Source of the DNA: Christensenellales bacterium
Lineage (GTDB): Bacteria; Bacillota; Clostridia; Christensenellales; UBA3700
DNA length: 64,000 nucleotides
NCBI GenBank assembly: GCA_051883415.1
Contig: JBJETR010000072.1
Location: 8,506 to 72,505 of the forward strand
Reading direction: 5' to 3'
Both the position numbers and the translations under genes were made by a program. The notes under the pieces were generated by a model. That model was not told the DNA's origin. It saw only the letters and a program-made list of their open reading frames with translations, and searched no databases. Numbering within the stretch: the stretch's first letter is position 1; every line of letters starts with the position of its first letter. Of the stretch, positions 43,100 to 50,888 are shown one piece after another.

Positions 43100-44029
43100 A
43101 TTAGAGGCAATCCCTCCGTCTTGCCATAAGCGGCTCGCTCACGGTGGAGATGCGAGTTTGACAAGGAGAGTGAGGACGGTGTGAGGGAGCATACTAATGC
43201 GTATGTGACCGAACGTACCCACATACTCGACACAGTATTGCGAAGTATATACGCCGTGAGACAACCCCTTTGCACAAAGGGGCCTTTTATTAGGTTGAGA
43301 TTGCCACAGCGTGTAAACACGCTTCGCAATGACATACAACCTTTTGACGGTGGAGATGCGAGTTTGACAACCCTTCCACCACCTTCGGTGGTAACTCTTA
43401 CGGCATAGGTGCGAGTTAGGCGAGGAGAACGAGGATTGGGCGACAGGAGCATACTTATCTCAATTCGTAATAAGTAACTAAGTAGTAGTTCTCTCGTGGT
43501 GTAGATACAAGCAAGACAAGGAGTACGAGTATTTTGTGCAGGGAGCATACTCCTTGTATGTGACCAAACAAAAACGTAAGTTACGACACAGTATTGCGAA
43601 GTATATACGCCACGAGAGCGACAAAGCATATCGATAAAGATATGCCGTAAGACACCCTTCCCGAACACAAGGGCGGCTTTTTATAAGATTGAGATTGCCA
43701 AGTTACGTTTCGCTCCACCGCAATGACACACTGCTTGGTCGGTGTTCCAACCCATTTTGACGGCATAGCTGCGAGTAAGACAAGAAAAAGGCAACCTTGT
43801 CGATTGCCTCAATTTGTTATTAGTTGCAATGGTGCCGCTCTATCGCGGTGGAGATGCGAGTAATGAGAGAGTTTGATTTATGTTATTGAGATTTTAATTG
43901 CACAGGTGCGAGTAAGACAAGGAAAAAGGCAACTTTATCGAAGCGAGCGTACTTGGCGTACGTGAGCAAGAAAAGTTGCCTTTTGACACAGTATTACGAA
44001 GTAGATATGCAATTAAAACTCAATAACAC
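43100..44029. repeat. Cluster of nested REP/MITE-like structured repeats
   Basis: Three full ~125-bp copies (43138-43260, 43491-43618, 43892-44018), partial copies, and two GAGATTGCCA...GCAATGAC hairpins. Confidence 0.8.
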
Positions 44030-47000
44030 CGCTGAAGACTTCAACCGACGTCCCCTTCAACATCACGCCCTCGTCGGTATATCTGACTACCATATCGCCA
44101 CCGATTTGCTTGACGGTGATGTCGGTGTCCTTTGGAAGGTAGCCGTTGAGGACGGCGCTGACTACTACGGCACAGCTTCCGCTACCGCTGGCATAGGTTT
44201 CGCCGCAGCCTTTGTCCCACGTGCGAATTTTGACGGTGTGACGGTCTATGACCTTGGCAAACTCTACGTTGGTACGGTCAGGGAATATGCTGTCGTACTC
44301 GAGTTGAGAGCCGAGTTTGGATATATCGATATTGTCGAGATGTTCGACGAATAACACGCAGTGTGGATTGCCCATAGATACGACGTTGAGCATATACTCT
44401 TTGCCGTCTACGGTGTATGGCACGCCAATTGCGTTTTTGCCTGCTAGTTTGACAGGAATGAGTGCCGGTTTGAGAATAGGCGAGCCCATATTGACTGTCA
44501 TATACGTTGCTTCGCCGTCTTGCGTCTTGACGTTGATATCTCTGATACCCGTTGGCGTCTCGATAGTTATGTCGTACTTGTTGACCTTACGATTGTCGTA
44601 GAGATATTTGGCTACTCCGAACAAGCCGTTGCCACATACCATACCTTGAGAGCCGTCACAGTTGAAGATACGCATCTTGGCATCGGCAACCTCCGACTTC
44701 TCGATAAGGATAATGCCTTCCGCACCTACACCGACGTGTCTATCGGACATTCTTACCGCAACGCCCTCAGGATTGTCGATAGTTACACCGTCCAGACAGT
44801 CGAAGAATATTCTATCGTTGCCTGCACTGTGCATCTTGACAAACTTGTGACTTTGTTTGCCCTTGCGAAGTTTGTTGATATCTACAAGCTCGGTATTGTA
44901 CTCGCTGTATCTGCTCATGAGGCAGTTGGCTACCGCATTGGCGGTGTCGATAGAGGTAAGACAAGGGATAGAACGCTCTACCGCCTTTCTTCTTATCTTG
45001 ACGCTGTCGCGAGTCGGCAATTTGCCCTTGGACGAGGTGGAGATGATATAGTCGATTTTTCCACTCTCGATGAGGGTAAGGTTGTTGTGCTCGAGGTTTT
45101 GGTGAATCTTGTCTACCGTAACGACCTCTAGTCCTCTCTCTCTCAGCACACGTGCAGTGCCCTTAGTTGCGTACAAGGTGTAGCCCAAATCTTCGAACTT
45201 CTGAGCGATGTCGCCTATCTCCGCCTTGTCTTGGTCACGCACTGTGATGAATATACCACCCTTTTTCTTCATACGGTAGCCTGCCGCAACCAAACCCTTG
45301 AACAAGGCTTCTTCCAACGTGTCGGCAAGTCCCAAAACTTCGCCCGTGGACTTCATCTCAGGTCCGAGTTGAGTGTCTACGTTGACGAGCTTGGCAAAGG
45401 AGAATACAGGCACCTTGACTGCTACGTAGTTGGACTTTGGATAGAGTCCCGTGCCGTAGCCCATATCGGCAAGCTTTTCACCCAATATGCATCTGGTGGC
45501 AAGGTCTACCATCGGTACTCCCGTCACCTTGCTGATATAAGGAATGGTACGCGAGCTACGAGGGTTGACTTCGATAACGTATAGTTCTTCTTCGTAGATA
45601 AGGTATTGAATATTGACGAGTCCGACAGTGTGCAAGTTGATTGCAAGTAGCTTAGAGCACTCGACTATTCTTGCGAGCATTTCGTCGCTGAGGTTCCAAG
45701 AAGGATATACGGCAATCGAGTCGCCCGAGTGTATGCCCGTACGCTCGATATGTTGCATAACTCCCGGGATAAGTATCTCTTCGCCGTCGCATATAGCGTC
45801 GATTTCTATCTCTCTACCCATGAGATATTTGTCGATAAGTACCGGATTTTCTATCTTTTGGGAGAGGATTACGTCCATATATTCGATGACGTCGGCGTCG
45901 GAGTGGCATACGCACATGTTTTGTCCGCCAAGCACGTAAGACGGACGTAGCAAGGTAGGATATCCTATCTTGTTGGCTACCTCCAAAGCTTCCTCTTTGG
46001 TCATTATGGTGTAACCCACGGGACGCTTGATTTGTAATCTTTCGAGCAACTCGTCGAAGAGTTCTCTATCCTCCGCCATGTCGATATATTCGGCTTGAGT
46101 GCCGAGAATCTTGATATTACGTTCTCTAAAGAGTTTGGTGAGCTTGATAGCCGTCTGTCCACCGAAGGCTACGACTACGCCGTCAGGCTTCTCGGTGTGA
46201 AGAATGTTGAGCACGTCTTCGTTGGTGAGAGGCTCGAAGTATAGTCTGTCGGCAGTATCGAAGTCGGTGGATACCGTCTCGGGATTGTTGTTGACTATGA
46301 CTACTTCGTAGCCCTTGCGTTTGAGAGCCCATACACAGTGCACGGACGCATAGTCAAACTCTACGCCTTGTCCGATACGGATAGGTCCGCTACCGAATAC
46401 GATAACTTTCTTTTTGCCTTGAGAATGAGCTTGGATAAACTGCTCGGCTTCGTTGTCGCTGTCGTAGGTGGAATAGAAGTAAGGCGTCTGCGCAGGGAAT
46501 TCCGCCGAACACGTGTCTACCATCTTGTACGAAGCGTACACAGGATTGGCAATCTTTTTGCCACTAATTCTCTCGATAGAACTGTCGAGGAAACCTACCT
46601 TTTTGGCTTGTAGATAGAGCTCGTCGTCAAGGTCGTCGCTCGATAAGCGCTTCTCGATATCTAAGATATTGACGAGTTTGTTGAGGAACCACCTGTCTAT
46701 TCTCGTCTTGGTGTGAATCTCGTTGACGGTGACGCCCCTCTTGAGAAGTTCGTAGATGACGAAGAGTCTTTCGTCATCACATGCGAGCATCTTGTCTTGC
46801 AATTCCATGTCGCTCATTGCGGCAATCTTCTTGTTGTAGAGGGTATCCATGGAGATTTCCGCACCTCTTACAGCCTTCATCAAGGCTTGTTCGAAGGAAG
46901 AACCGATGGACATTACTTCGCCCGTTGCTTTCATTTGCGTGCCGAGTTGACGGCTAGCGTAGAAGAATTTGTCGAACGGCCACTTAGGGAATTTGACTAC

Positions 47001-48059
47001 GATATAGTCGACCGTAGGCTCGTTGCAGGCGTAGGTGCAACCCGTAACGGCGTTTTTGATTTCGTCAAGGCTGTAGCCGATTGCAATCTTGGTGGCTACT
47101 TTGGCTATCGGATAACCCGTTGCCTTGCTGGCAAGCGCCGAGCTACGACTGACGCGTGGATTGACTTCGATAACGGCGTATTCTAAACTGTCGGGATGCA
47201 ATGCAAATTGCACGTTGCAACCACCCTCGACTCGGAGTGCGTTGACGATTTTGAGCGCCGCACTGCGAAGCATTCCGAATTCTTTCTCCGATAGCGTTAC
47301 CGCAGGAGCAACGACTATACTGTCACCCGTGTGCACGCCGACAGGATCAACGTTCTCCATACTACATACCGTAATGCAATTGCCCTTGCTATCTCTTATT
47401 ACTTCGAACTCGATTTCTTTCCAACCGCTTATACACTTCTCGACCAATATCTGGTGAATAGGACTGAGGCGAAGTCCGTTCTCGGCGATGTCTTCGAACT
47501 CATCTTGGTTGTGAGCGATACCGCCGCCCGTTCCGCCCAAAGTAAATGCCGGACGTATGATGACTGGATAACCAATCTCTCTTGCTACCCTTATGCCGTC
47601 GTCCATGGTATTGACGACCTCGGAAGGAATGACGGGCTCGTTAATCTCTGCGAGCGTGTCCTTGAAGCTTTGTCTGTCCTCGGCTCTATCTATCGTCTCG
47701 GGATTGGCGCCCAAAAGTCGTACGCCCATCTTGTCAAGGAAGCCTTCCTTGGCGAGTTGCATGCTGAGAGTAAGTCCCGTCTGTCCGCCGAGTGTGGACA
47801 AAAGACTGTCGGGACGCTCCTTCTCGATAATTCTCTTGACGGTGGTGAGCGTCAAAGGCTCGATATATATCCTGTCTGCCACCGCATTGTCGGTCTGTAT
47901 AGTTGCCGGATTGGAATTGACAAGCACGACTTCGAGATTGTCTTCTTTGAGCGCTCTGCACGCTTGAGTGCCTGCATAGTCAAATTCCGCAGCCTGTCCG
48001 ATGACGATTGGTCCCGAACCTATTACCATTACTTTGTGCAAATCTTTGTTGAGTGGCAT
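44013..48059 (-). CDS. carB: Carbamoyl-phosphate synthase large subunit fused to a C-terminal DapF-like domain
   Basis: GSGPIVIGQAAEFDY, two ATP-grasp domains (EVNPR), MGS domain, then FVKMHSAGND...CGNG...MGNPH...TNVEF in the same frame. Confidence 0.95.
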   Translation of the reverse strand: MPLNKDLHKVMVIGSGPIVIGQAAEFDYAGTQACRALKEDNLEVVLVNSNPATIQTDNAVADRIYIEPLTLTTVKRIIEKERPDSLLSTLGGQTGLTLSMQLAKEGFLDKMGVRLLGANPETIDRAEDRQSFKDTLAEINEPVIPSEVVNTMDDGIRVAREIGYPVIIRPAFTLGGTGGGIAHNQDEFEDIAENGLRLSPIHQILVEKCISGWKEIEFEVIRDSKGNCITVCSMENVDPVGVHTGDSIVVAPAVTLSEKEFGMLRSAALKIVNALRVEGGCNVQFALHPDSLEYAVIEVNPRVSRSSALASKATGYPIAKVATKIAIGYSLDEIKNAVTGCTYACNEPTVDYIVVKFPKWPFDKFFYASRQLGTQMKATGEVMSIGSSFEQALMKAVRGAEISMDTLYNKKIAAMSDMELQDKMLACDDERLFVIYELLKRGVTVNEIHTKTRIDRWFLNKLVNILDIEKRLSSDDLDDELYLQAKKVGFLDSSIERISGKKIANPVYASYKMVDTCSAEFPAQTPYFYSTYDSDNEAEQFIQAHSQGKKKVIVFGSGPIRIGQGVEFDYASVHCVWALKRKGYEVVIVNNNPETVSTDFDTADRLYFEPLTNEDVLNILHTEKPDGVVVAFGGQTAIKLTKLFRERNIKILGTQAEYIDMAEDRELFDELLERLQIKRPVGYTIMTKEEALEVANKIGYPTLLRPSYVLGGQNMCVCHSDADVIEYMDVILSQKIENPVLIDKYLMGREIEIDAICDGEEILIPGVMQHIERTGIHSGDSIAVYPSWNLSDEMLARIVECSKLLAINLHTVGLVNIQYLIYEEELYVIEVNPRSSRTIPYISKVTGVPMVDLATRCILGEKLADMGYGTGLYPKSNYVAVKVPVFSFAKLVNVDTQLGPEMKSTGEVLGLADTLEEALFKGLVAAGYRMKKKGGIFITVRDQDKAEIGDIAQKFEDLGYTLYATKGTARVLRERGLEVVTVDKIHQNLEHNNLTLIESGKIDYIISTSSKGKLPTRDSVKIRRKAVERSIPCLTSIDTANAVANCLMSRYSEYNTELVDINKLRKGKQSHKFVKMHSAGNDRIFFDCLDGVTIDNPEGVAVRMSDRHVGVGAEGIILIEKSEVADAKMRIFNCDGSQGMVCGNGLFGVAKYLYDNRKVNKYDITIETPTGIRDINVKTQDGEATYMTVNMGSPILKPALIPVKLAGKNAIGVPYTVDGKEYMLNVVSMGNPHCVLFVEHLDNIDISKLGSQLEYDSIFPDRTNVEFAKVIDRHTVKIRTWDKGCGETYASGSGSCAVVVSAVLNGYLPKDTDITVKQIGGDMVVRYTDEGVMLKGTSVEVFSGVIEF

Positions 48060-49120
48060 TATCTATTCTCCTTTGTCATATTGATAAATTGGTCGTATAT
48101 AAAATCCGTTGCTATAGGTCCACCGTTGAAGCTTGGTAAAAACTCGGTGGAGATTGCCGTATAGCAGTCGTATTCCAAGCCCTCTACGCTACCGTCGTTG
48201 ACATTGACGAAGGCTGTTTTTACGCCCTTGGCATCGCTGAGGTCAAGGTCTGTATTATGGTTTTGGTATGTGACAAATAAGCGACCTGTATCGAGTTTTT
48301 TGGTAGGTTGGTTGCTTCCGTGATGTCCGTATTTCATATCTTTGAGCTTAGCTCCGCACGAGAGTGCCATGAGCTTGTGTCCCAATCCTATACCAAGCAT
48401 TGGTAGCTTTTTGCCGACCTTAGCAATATTATCAACCACACTATCGTAATCGCTCACTCTATCACTGCCCGATGACCAAACTACGCCGACAGGATTGGTA
48501 GCGAGTATTTGCTCCGCGGTTGTGTCCGCACCAACAATCTCTACGCTCATTCCTTTAGCAACCAGGCTGTCTGCGATATCGTAAACTTCTCCCAAATCGA
48601 CTAGACAAACCTTGTCGCCCTTGCCTACTATTTTACCCGAATTATTGGCACCTCTACCTTGGATAGACGTGCTTGGATCGTAACTAGCCAGCAGTGCTTT
48701 TTGCTCCTCGTCAAGACTTGACGAAGAAGTAATCAAGGCGTTGACGGAGCCGTTATCTCTGATGATTTTGGTAAGGTGGCGAGTGTCGATGCCTGCCATG
48801 CCTACCACGCCTCGCTCTTGCATCAACTTAGCAATGCAACCTACGCTACGGAAGTTGGATGGCTTGTCACACACCTCTCTGACAAGAACTGCCTTGACGT
48901 GACTGTCCTTGCCCTCCACGTCACTGTTGACGCCGTAATTGCCAAATGCGGGAAAAGTGTCTACGACTATCTGCCCCTCGTAACACTCGTCGGTGAGCAA
49001 AGTCATATCCCCACCCATTGCGGTGTTGAATACCAGCTGTCCCACTACTTGTTTGCGTGCTCCGAAAGCCATGCCTTCAAAGACTTGTCCACTTGCAAGA
49101 TACAAATAAATTTTGTCCAT
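48059..49120 (-). CDS. carA: Carbamoyl-phosphate synthase small subunit, glutaminase triad absent
   Basis: LVFNTAMGG, GIDTRHLT, YGHHGSNQP, YQNH; but GIGLGH replaces GICLGH and FLPS replaces (Y/F)HPE. Confidence 0.9.
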   Translation of the reverse strand: MDKIYLYLASGQVFEGMAFGARKQVVGQLVFNTAMGGDMTLLTDECYEGQIVVDTFPAFGNYGVNSDVEGKDSHVKAVLVREVCDKPSNFRSVGCIAKLMQERGVVGMAGIDTRHLTKIIRDNGSVNALITSSSSLDEEQKALLASYDPSTSIQGRGANNSGKIVGKGDKVCLVDLGEVYDIADSLVAKGMSVEIVGADTTAEQILATNPVGVVWSSGSDRVSDYDSVVDNIAKVGKKLPMLGIGLGHKLMALSCGAKLKDMKYGHHGSNQPTKKLDTGRLFVTYQNHNTDLDLSDAKGVKTAFVNVNDGSVEGLEYDCYTAISTEFLPSFNGGPIATDFIYDQFINMTKENR

Positions 49121-49151
49121 ATATACCTCTCAAAAATTTTCGATATGATAT

Positions 49152-49200
49152 AAAAAAAGAAGACTACTCAACGCATATCACAATGCCTTGTCAGTCTTCT
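49152..49200 (-). terminator. Leader terminator (attenuator) upstream of carA
   Basis: AGAAGACT...AGTCTTCT stem followed by a U tract, between the promoter and carA RBS. Confidence 0.75.
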
Positions 49201-49252
49201 AATACGTAGTGCCAATATCGTTTCGGCTTTTGCCCTTGTACGTTGGTAGCAT
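49199..49252 (-). CDS. Putative leader peptide MLPTYKGKSRNDIGTTY
   Basis: AGGAGA-TTT-ATG; 17 codons; TAG stop overlaps the 5' arm of the terminator. Confidence 0.45.
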   Translation of the reverse strand: MLPTYKGKSRNDIGTTY

Positions 49253-49466
49253 AAATCTCCTATTAGTACGATTGTCAGCAACGAGTATTGTCATTGCTCA
49301 TAGTTGCTCGACACCATTGCCGAGCCATTATTAAAATAATACGCTAAACTACCCCTTGGTGTCAATCTAAAATAGGCAAAAAAATAATATTTATTTGGCT
49401 CAATTTTAATGACACAAAGGCGTGATTTTGGTATACTAAATGCGTATTTTATCTATGGAGGTTTTT

Positions 49467-50888
49467 ATGCAAAAGGCTATCAACGACAAAATTCACGAAG
49501 AATGCGGTATTTTCGGCATATACGACAAATCCAAAGCCGGCAGTATTGCCAGCACGGTATATTACGGCTTATTCGCTCTTCAACACCGCGGTCAAGAAGC
49601 TGCCGGTATAGCTGTCAACTTCAATAGAGAGATTACTCTCGTGAGAGGTCTCGGCTTGGTGAGTGACGTATTTAAGCACAAAGACCTTGCCTCAATGCCG
49701 GGCGATATCGCCATTGGTCACGTAAGATATAGTTCCGGTCCGTTTAAGGGTGTGGAAAATGCTCAACCCATCACAGTCAACTACGCCAAAGGCAACCTTA
49801 CCGTGGCACACAACGGCAATATTACCAACTCGCAAGCTTTGCGAACGGCTCTAGAAAATCAAGGCGCAATATTCCACTCCAACAACGACAGCGAAATAAT
49901 CTGCTATCTCATAGCAAGAGAAAGACTAAAATGCAAGACGATTGAGGAGGCAGTTGCCAACGTAGTGCCTATGCTCAAAGGTGCATTCTCATTGCTAATC
50001 ATGAGTCCTACCAAGCTCATCGCATTGAGAGATCCTCTCGGCATCAGACCTCTATGTATGGGCTATATCAACGAGAGCGTCGTATTCGCTAGCGAAACTT
50101 GTGCTCTCGAAACGGTGGGCGCAAGATTTGAAAGAGATATCAAACCGGGTGAAATATTGGTGGTTAGCAAGGACGATATGTATAGCGATATGCGCTTTGC
50201 CACCGACAAGTCGGCACTGTGCATATTCGAACACGTGTACTTCGCAAGGCCCGATAGCACCATAGACAACCAAAGCGTCAACGAGGCTCGTATGAATGCG
50301 GGTAAGCTGCTGGCTATGCAATATCCCGTAGACGCAGACTTGGTAATAGGCGTGCCGGATAGCGGTCTTTGTAGTGCGATAGGCTACTCCGCTCAAAGCG
50401 GTATCCCTTACGGCACGGGACTCATCAAAAATAGATATATAGGAAGAACCTTTATTCAACCTACCCAAGCCATGAGAGAGAGAAGCGTTGCTCTCAAACT
50501 CAACGCTTTGGAGAGCAACGTCAAGGGCAAACGTATAGTGATGATCGACGACTCCATCGTAAGAGGCACTACCCTCAAAAATATCGTCAAATTGCTAAAA
50601 ACCGCCGGAGCAACCGAAGTGCACGTTCGTATCAGCTCGCCTAAATTCTTGTATCCTTGCTTCTACGGCACCGATATCCCCGATAGAAGTTGCCTAGCCG
50701 CAGTCAAGTGGACGGAAGAAGAAATTAGACAAAACCTAGATGCAGATACTCTTGGTTTCCTCAAACTAGAAAGCGTAAAAGATATCGCTCCTTGCTCGAC
50801 GACAGACTTTTGTACCGCCTGCTTTGACGGCAAATATCCGTCTTGCGTGGACAACACTATCGACTCGCAATTTATCGACAAACTGTAG
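49467..50888 (+). CDS. purF: Amidophosphoribosyltransferase
   Basis: Propeptide then EECGIFG (Cys1 intact), QHRGQE, DDSIVRGTT, Fe-S cysteines (CTACF). Confidence 0.97.
   Translation: MQKAINDKIHEECGIFGIYDKSKAGSIASTVYYGLFALQHRGQEAAGIAVNFNREITLVRGLGLVSDVFKHKDLASMPGDIAIGHVRYSSGPFKGVENAQPITVNYAKGNLTVAHNGNITNSQALRTALENQGAIFHSNNDSEIICYLIARERLKCKTIEEAVANVVPMLKGAFSLLIMSPTKLIALRDPLGIRPLCMGYINESVVFASETCALETVGARFERDIKPGEILVVSKDDMYSDMRFATDKSALCIFEHVYFARPDSTIDNQSVNEARMNAGKLLAMQYPVDADLVIGVPDSGLCSAIGYSAQSGIPYGTGLIKNRYIGRTFIQPTQAMRERSVALKLNALESNVKGKRIVMIDDSIVRGTTLKNIVKLLKTAGATEVHVRISSPKFLYPCFYGTDIPDRSCLAAVKWTEEEIRQNLDADTLGFLKLESVKDIAPCSTTDFCTACFDGKYPSCVDNTIDSQFIDKL

Follow-up and report, generated by a model that had tools for sequence, protein, structure and literature searches.

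What controls the carA gene found in this 64,000-nucleotide stretch of Christensenellales DNA (the window), and to which signal would its leader respond? The gene (48059..49120, minus strand) encodes the small subunit of carbamoyl-phosphate synthase (CPS). On the same strand lies carB, fused in frame to dapF (CarB-DapF, 44013..48059, 1348 aa), unlike the paralogous operon, where carB and dapF are separate genes. Divergently placed is purF (49467..50888, plus strand), whose start was set from its Shine-Dalgarno sequence, and the same divergent arrangement is also seen upstream in genus leaders. The stretch was found mostly in pig-gut and gut metagenome runs, at shares of up to 0.34.

The CarA encoded here is unusual, as it lacks the catalytic Cys (GIGLGH) and His (TEFLP). 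Our genus sample comprises seven genomes from three deep lineages (G000 to G006, G000 being the genome of the window), three of which (G000, G005, G002) were included in the active-site alignment, and both residues are missing in all three. They are kept by four aligned relatives from other genera, and also by a second CarA paralogue found in three of the seven genomes; in G004 and G005 this intact paralogue lies within the nitrogen cluster, in a long operon behind an ANTAR-motif leader. Since glutamine is the physiological nitrogen donor of bacterial CPS, according to the available text of PMC6245113, the leader-controlled enzyme probably depends on free ammonia, as far as its sequence can tell. 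Such dependence makes a nitrogen input at the carA leader plausible.

A leader ORF that stops at a terminator

The sequence-only reading of this locus had reported, on the minus strand, a promoter, hairpins, and a 17-codon ORF with a Shine-Dalgarno sequence and a TAG in a terminator arm, all of which are present. First, the sigma-70-type promoter (49336..49365, minus strand) consists of TTGACA (49365-49360), an 18 nt spacer and TATTAT (49341-49336), together 11 of 12 consensus matches, with a predicted start near 49329. It is the best of seven promoter-like sites in 48500-50200, where shuffles average 3.3 sites, and an equivalent promoter precedes the leader in 7/7 genus genomes. Second, a Shine-Dalgarno-like AGGAG (49257..49261, minus strand) stands 4 nt before the ATG at 49252 of a putatively translated ORF (49199..49252, minus strand), which encodes MLPTYKGKSRNDIGTTY in 17 codons and ends with a TAG at 49201-49199. 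Third, an intrinsic terminator (49152..49200, minus strand) is formed by a basal stem of AGAAGACT (49200-49193) and AGTCTTCT (49165-49158), a nested inner hairpin (49190-49169) that ends about 10 nt ahead of the U tract, and a 7-U tail down to 49152. The terminator folds at -18.7 kcal/mol over 49200-49158 (z -4.5; whole leader, z -3.3) and sits about 30-38 nt ahead of carA. The TAG overlaps the first two bases of its 5' arm. The short spacing between Shine-Dalgarno and ATG, already flagged as a caveat, is unusual but possible: spacings of 4 nt or less occur in 15 of 433 called genes with GGAG, a count in which start calling favours typical spacings.

This arrangement is kept throughout the genus. 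In 7/7 genomes a Shine-Dalgarno-led ORF of 16-17 codons has a stop ending 2 nt inside the terminator arm, with ATG-to-stem distances of 52, 50 and 49 nt across the lineages. The seven counted basal pairs are invariant in all seven genomes, and the inner hairpin is retained with different sequence in G005 and in G002/G003, standing 9-11 nt before the U tract in all three lineages. When each leader was shuffled 5000 times with dinucleotides preserved, 0.4-2.4% of the shuffles contained an ORF of at least 10 codons that is Shine-Dalgarno-led and stops at the stem, a rate to be read with criteria chosen after seeing the data and with seven genomes that are kin. Covariation of the counted leader structure was no better than in shuffles, with an invariant basal stem and an alignment that misregisters the inner hairpin of G002/G003. 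In our judgement, the carA leader is a real and conserved attenuator.

The encoded peptide tells a different story from the position of its stop. The G004 peptide is identical to that of G000 (four synonymous and no non-synonymous changes), and those of G006 and G001 differ from it at two and three residues, respectively. The segment MxPTYKxKSR is kept in 4/7 genomes, and G006 has one further change (S9G). In G005, which keeps eight of the first ten residues and has two synonymous changes in the conserved segment, a 2-nt deletion after codon 11 leads to an unrelated C-terminus and to a new TAA at the same stem position. G002 and G003 encode a different, unrelated 16-mer. Met1 is the sole residue common to all seven peptides; the C-terminal residues vary (GTTY, GKAY, RHML, STNI). 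In the comparison of leaders among relatives, which had been proposed as a check, the peptide is not kept genus-wide, its N-terminal part is partially conserved in 5/7 genomes, and the RNA structure gains no support from covariation.

These data bear directly on the metabolite-sensing arrest peptide that had been proposed for this ORF, whereby the nascent chain senses Arg, Orn, Gln or ammonium in the exit tunnel, and arrest at the stop holds the terminator open. The geometry fits arrest at the stop, and among the four closest species the ORF is constrained much like CarA (non-synonymous divergence of 0-0.095 vs 0.034-0.069), as also reflected by the G000-G004 pair and by the shared N-terminal segment. 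However, the C-terminus is variable, one lineage is frameshifted and two genomes have an unrelated peptide, whereas SpeFL, in the account of 10.1101/604074, relies on sensor and effector residues that are strictly conserved, and works via Rho. Moreover, synonymous divergence is lower in the leader ORF than in carA in five of six pairs, which indicates constraint at the nucleotide level, and the leader is kept in G002, G003 and G004, where no argG was found. What the genus conserves thus appears to be the position of the ORF stop and not the peptide, which argues against an arrest peptide; we regard this proposal as improbable.

Additional features of the ORF were recorded. A rare CGA codon occupies position 10 in G000, and at least one CGA occurs in each of the 7/7 genus leader ORFs; CGA makes up 931 of the 13,981 Arg codons of G000, and no Arg-TCG is among the 25 tRNAs found in this genome, an incomplete set. 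Strain variants within the ORF (two synonymous and two non-synonymous shown) match those of G006. Two RNA-library contigs from one study, belonging to a G006-like strain, span the ORF, the terminator and carA, with the promoter stretch outside them and no start, strand or level readable. Further copies of the leader were not found elsewhere in G000 (best other match, E 0.19), nor did a metagenome protein scan find further homologues. A pattern scan returned 17 loci, one of them at carA and resembling G002.

An ANTAR-type module at the 5' end

The 5' part of the leader had been described as overlapping alternative hairpins. Both do fold, namely, P1 (GCTCGGCA/TGTCGAGC, 49306..49325, minus strand) at -12.5 kcal/mol (z -4.0) and the competing AGCAAC/GTTGCT hairpin (49312-49273) at -11.1 kcal/mol (z -2.6), but they are better explained by an ANTAR-type motif that had gone unrecognised. 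P1 has a 7-bp stem, a C-G closing pair and the hexaloop AAUGGU, with A1 and G4, and its core 12-mer (49321-49310, minus strand) starts 14 nt after the -10 hexamer. A1 and G4 in a six-base loop closed by a conserved pair are the signature given for ANTAR targets in the available text of PMC3369931. Downstream of P1, a second hairpin, H2 (AGCAATGA/TCGTTGCT, 49277..49298, minus strand), contains a P2-like loop (49298-49287) on a short stem that is unpaired in G000.

Using a matrix built from 13 nitrogen-cluster sites of related genomes, picked by hand, P1 scores 17.5 bits and ranks sixth among the 454,322 intergenic 12-mers of G000. Three of the 30 best G000 matches have a promoter pattern directly upstream, and these are two nitrogen leaders and carA; in the glutamine synthetase III leader, as in that of carA, the motif lies 14 nt after the -10 box. 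The carA 12-mer also overlaps terminators before nitrogen-cluster genes, in G000 and in relatives. The matrix yields false positives, as indicated by two copies of a ~28-nt repeat (G000:C41, near 34993 and 33919, minus strand) that outscore carA among small zinc-ribbon membrane-protein genes, without promoter or terminator context. As a separate observation, the divergent region G000:C67:15985-16345 (L138) has three ANTAR-type sites that overlap terminators: a tandem pair precedes glutamine synthetase III, and the third site precedes the glutamate synthase cluster.

The motif and the protein co-occur within the genus. An ANTAR protein (PF03861) was found in G000, G001, G004 and G005, and not in G002 (80% complete), G003 or G006 (some bases withheld). 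In the four genomes with the gene, P1 scores 17.5, 18.2, 16.0 and 13.1 bits; in those where it was not found, 8.4 (G006) and below zero (G002/G003). The nitrogen cluster of G000 that encodes its single ANTAR protein also comprises genes for two glutamine synthetases and an ammonium transporter, along with a glutamate synthase region. Across the genus, 94% of P1 cells are paired, with four pairs varying on one side and none on both. The 5' hairpin likely binds the ANTAR regulator and adds a nitrogen-status input in the genomes that encode it.

The second half of the module is less regular. A P2-type loop is found 10-11 nt away in G000, G001, G004 and G005, with scores of 1.7 bits in G000, 8.1 in G004 and 7.7 in G005, and its 3-bp stem pairs in G005 alone; nitrogen-gene sites of the family mostly have one clear hairpin in place of the customary two. 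P2 overlaps neither a terminator nor a ribosome-binding site in G000 and G001. At this place G004 has a weak hairpin with a U tail (-7.9), as does G006 on visual inspection, and P2 of G005 contains the Shine-Dalgarno sequence of the leader. H2 is a probable remnant of an ANTAR-controlled terminator, judging from a U tail that is lost in G000 and weak in G004 and G006, and the module may be active or may be a decaying ANTAR terminator. Masking the ANTAR motifs changed the opening cost of the ribosome-binding site from 4.0 to 5.0 kcal/mol in G000 and from 5.9 to 1.5 kcal/mol in G005, whose Shine-Dalgarno sequence the bound protein would cover. In three further genomes the changes were from 2.9 to 2.8, from 6.2 to 5.0 and from 3.3 to 4.4 kcal/mol, and across the five values there is no consistent sign.

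ANTAR-type motifs were also seen in the leaders of the second carA of G008 (L115:15618) and G032 (L134), and in carA leaders L169 and L182. In G008 and G032 the motif overlaps a terminator, and so ANTAR control of CPS is predicted also without a leader ORF.

Proposed ribosome gating and its candidate signals

A ribosome at or near the stop had been expected to cover the 5' arm of the terminator, and this expectation was borne out in our folding model. In a scan with a 28-nt ribosome footprint set on one codon after another, the basal stem had a probability of at least 0.96 with the ribosome on earlier codons and was lost once the A site reached the last three to four codons, and the corresponding geometry is found in 7/7 genomes. 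No competing antiterminator fold was found in the seven leaders, where opening the 3' arm of the terminator costs 6.2-11.2 kcal/mol, a cost that speaks against an antiterminator. Since the stem is lost only with a ribosome at the last codons, reaching the stop would mean ON and earlier stalling would mean OFF, the opposite of trp/his attenuators. A classical trp/his-type attenuator was itself rejected, given that the leader has no control-codon run, no antiterminator and a stop inside the stem.

Gating of this kind needs transcription-translation coupling. Of the 233 terminators predicted at gene ends in G000, only 46 start no more than 12 nt from a stop, with a mode of 15-25 nt (raw values, uncalibrated on a reference genome), and these distances may point to coupling in the host; Rho was found in 7/7 genus genomes. 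According to the text available of PMC4824070, E. coli terminators near a stop are repressed by coupled ribosomes, and those of amino-acid attenuators lie more than 20 bp away from the leader gene. Coupling at pyrBI relies on pauses, in the parts of PMC4824070 and PMC5021804 that describe it, and B. subtilis is portrayed in the accessible portion of PMC7858274 as largely uncoupled, with terminators a few bases past stops, shorter distances than are typical of G000.

With regard to the signal, known RNA classes provided no candidate. Rfam gave no matches at gathering score in the whole window, and three chance-level matches only (E 7-10) in 49000-49550; the scan suggested at the outset thus returned no known riboswitch. 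Riboswitch, T-box or PyrR RNA leaders were rejected in view of the missing Rfam support. Resemblances to purine, lysine and ZTP riboswitches, seen by eye, were also rejected, since they vanish on comparison with G005, G002 and G003, in which this stretch is either missing or recoded. The arg operon, where present in the genus, carries ARG boxes, and the best ARG box score upstream of the carA promoter was -0.1 bits vs about 20 for the four argG training boxes. These results agree with the sequence-only reading, which saw no PyrR site, T-box or ARG box.

A PyrR gene was not found in 7/7 genus genomes, in a search whose control was detected in 6 of 14 genomes; among the relatives searched, PyrR was found in 20 of 41. 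The pyrB genes of G000, G002 and G005 have no comparable ORF-terminator leader, which makes CPS a plausible control point. When 32 loci were scanned by script, the ORF-terminator design was detected at carA in seven of eight genomes of genus g3 and in G043 (1/1), and at pyrB in three of eight loci; it was not detected in the carA leaders of genus g4 (0/5), G007, G011 and G029 (0/1 each), although PyrR was also not found in those of the g4, G007 and G011 genomes that were tested; the design is thus not a general one. With PyrR not found in the genus and leaders of similar layout seen again at carA and pyrB in relatives, coupling of the pyrBI type is the best reading of the carA leader.

Specifically, we give an even chance to translation-coupled attenuation as at pyrBI/pyrE, with the ribosome itself serving as antiterminator and a shortage of UTP as the likely signal. 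By default, RNA polymerase would outrun a ribosome delayed by a weakly spaced Shine-Dalgarno sequence and a rare CGA codon, and would terminate ahead of carA. At low UTP, the polymerase would linger on the first residues of the U tract, where UTP is the next substrate, with the inner hairpin keeping it there. The ribosome would meanwhile arrive at the stop and cover the basal arm, and transcription would enter carA-carB/dapF. In ANTAR-encoding genomes, the 5' hairpin would bind the regulator and add the nitrogen-status input. In G005, a regulator sitting on the second hairpin, which contains the Shine-Dalgarno sequence, would most simply block leader translation and turn the operon off. The CGA codon may delay the ribosome or render its progress dependent on the supply of tRNA. 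A hairpin about 9-11 nt upstream can hold a polymerase pause; we infer a pause of this kind at the nested hairpin from a layout that may be found in any long terminator with interruptions.

The composition of the ORF complicates the assignment to UTP. The leader ORF is U-poor, with a T fraction of 0.12-0.25 and a longest U run of 1-2 nt in five of the genomes and of 5 nt in the other two, to be compared with T fractions of 0.23-0.46 in other pyr leaders and of 0.26 over the opening 51 nt of genes in G000. The leader becomes U-rich solely from the terminator 3' arm onward. In the available text of PMC3641672, pyrBI is defined by a uridine-rich stretch overlapping the ORF, a feature absent from the genus carA leaders.

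Ribosome occlusion could alternatively be driven by translation capacity or nitrogen sufficiency instead of UTP. Fast leader translation would then switch the probably ammonia-using CPS on, and amino-acid shortage, through CGA stalling, together with the ANTAR regulator, would switch it off, with the glutamine-using paralogue of the ANTAR-controlled nitrogen cluster taking over. We consider this unlikely on balance, despite a U-poor ORF, CGA in 7/7 ORFs, and the pairing of a regulated CarA that lacks Cys and His with an intact second CarA behind an ANTAR-motif leader in G004 and G005. The G005 hairpin that holds the Shine-Dalgarno sequence also speaks in its favour, as ANTAR sites over ribosome-binding sites repress translation in actinobacteria, in what PMC8164766 makes available. 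However, G002, G003 and G006 keep the ORF and terminator with no ANTAR protein and no second CarA detected; stalling at Arg codons would lower an enzyme needed for arginine; and masking the ANTAR motifs shifts the opening cost of the ribosome-binding site in no consistent direction. Taking both signals together, a leader that is ribosome-gated and peptide-independent is quite likely, with UTP contributing about an even chance to that estimate and translation or nitrogen status a distinctly smaller share.

A more elaborate version has two inputs: ANTAR binding under nitrogen limitation would stop leader translation and close the terminator of the ammonia-using CPS, and the ANTAR protein would also antiterminate the glutamine-CPS operon. 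We rate this version as rather unlikely. If true, it would amount to a reciprocal switch between ammonia and glutamine CPS, with an antiterminator protein turned terminator-promoting, and to an ANTAR switch layered over a ribosome gate that senses nucleotides without the customary U-rich track, in a phylum in which coupling is regarded as weak.

It is also conceivable that the ORF is incidental or untranslated, and that the terminator is leaky or opened by some other RNA-binding protein or RNA switch, the 5' hairpin merely stabilising the RNA. The rarity of 4-nt Shine-Dalgarno spacing (15/433) would agree with this, as would the approximately 8 of 69 leader-like G000 terminators that have some short, Shine-Dalgarno-led ORF stopping near the stem (by loose criteria and our own count, in a scan that missed the carA ORF because of its short spacing and may miss others). 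Yet the G005 frameshift gains a new stop at the stem, the shuffle rates are low (0.4-2.4%), there is neither an Rfam match nor an alternative fold, and the P1 loop has degenerated in G006, a genome with no ANTAR protein detected. An incidental ORF is thus very improbable in our view.

If the ribosome-gated reading is right, gut Christensenellales-type bacteria that lost PyrR gate their carbamoyl-phosphate supply by a terminator that depends on coupling. The model species of their phylum is uncoupled, and the seven leader variants occurring in nature allow coupling to be tested directly. The ANTAR-type hairpin would, if right, tie the choice between glutaminase-dead and intact CPS to nitrogen status.

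Comparison with known systems and related leaders

The rph-pyrE attenuator of E. coli is a system of the pyrBI (pyrL) kind. With both, the carA leader shares a short ORF overlapping an intrinsic terminator before a pyrimidine-pathway gene, no antiterminator, and a ribosome that would block the hairpin. It differs from pyrBI in that its ORF of 16-17 codons is U-poor and stops at the stem base instead of running through; that its pause hairpin, if any, is nested inside the terminator, with an ANTAR-type hairpin upstream; and that its target is carAB, in a Christensenellales-type Bacillota genus where PyrR was not found. We do not file it as a member of the pyrBI class, since, although it would work alike, it lacks one defining feature, the U-rich stretch.

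Fungal arginine attenuator peptide (AAP) serves as the arrest-peptide comparison. As in SpeFL, TnaC and AAP, the position of the ribosome at the leader-ORF stop would decide downstream expression, but the carA leader has no genus-wide peptide motif and no HIRRXXH-like sensor, and uses an intrinsic terminator, not Rho.

ANTAR targets such as those of EutV, NasR and AmiR, as described in portions of PMC3369931 and PMC8164766, have the same A1/G4 hexaloop and C-G closing pair, and are defined by a second such hairpin 5-12 nt away; the carA leader has a loop of this type 10-11 nt off in four genomes. The carA motif also equals the G000 sites before glutamine synthetase III and the glutamate synthase cluster, and co-occurs with an ANTAR protein. 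However, the second stem at carA pairs in G005 alone, no working terminator overlaps the motif in G000, and the operative terminator is ORF-gated and ~110 nt downstream. The carA leader therefore appears to match the definition of an ANTAR target in part.

Two further systems invite comparison. The Salmonella mgtCBR leader (mgtM, mgtP), in the text available of PMC3641672, likewise combines two inputs and has a short ORF with unconserved amino acids that acts through coupling; the carA modules are instead a predicted protein-binding hairpin and one ORF, with no conserved long A run or control-codon cluster. The PyrR attenuator of Bacillota also places a leader terminator at a pyrimidine-pathway gene, but here neither a PyrR gene nor a PyrR RNA match was found in the genus. 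Excerpts of PMC6245113 and PMC6524683 describe E. coli carAB as controlled at initiation and B. subtilis pyr genes as controlled by PyrR. Firmicutes leader peptides are reported as rare and possibly convergent in the part of PMC2965389 available, and the available part of PMC13323073 makes no mention of Clostridia. In open-licence PMC and bioRxiv text we found no description of the carA leader, and none of a tandem of ANTAR motif and ORF-terminator.

Among 77 distant carA loci, 32 have an intergenic upstream region, 12 of which have a terminator and five, under permissive criteria, an ORF that in one case is probably the tail of a gene. Two of the same 32 regions have an ANTAR score above 13, and none combines an ORF-terminator with an ANTAR motif.

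Related leaders found along the way deserve separate mention. First, the carA leaders L009, L012, L118, L119 and L120 of genus g3 have ORFs of 35-42 codons that end at or in the terminator and share approximately R-x-(D/E)-(I/V)-(Y/F)-S-E-L-C-G-x-F; the shared segment coincides with a hairpin, and a U run follows ~11 nt later, the classic pyrL layout. Second, the pyrB leaders of G012 and G013 (L074 and L080) have a PyrR-type attenuator and then a second ORF-terminator unit, with ORFs of 33 and 27 codons, respectively, whose stop is at the stem, that is, tandem pyrimidine attenuators. Third, in the pyrB leader of G043 (L083), a promoter-near 16-codon ORF, with no clear Shine-Dalgarno sequence, has its stop inside a strong terminator, and leaderless translation is possible. 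Last, upstream of a gene of G000 that is TrpB-like by eye (G000:C7:8405-9787, minus strand), a 9-codon ORF with one Trp codon ends 10 nt before a weak terminator, a possible tryptophan attenuator.
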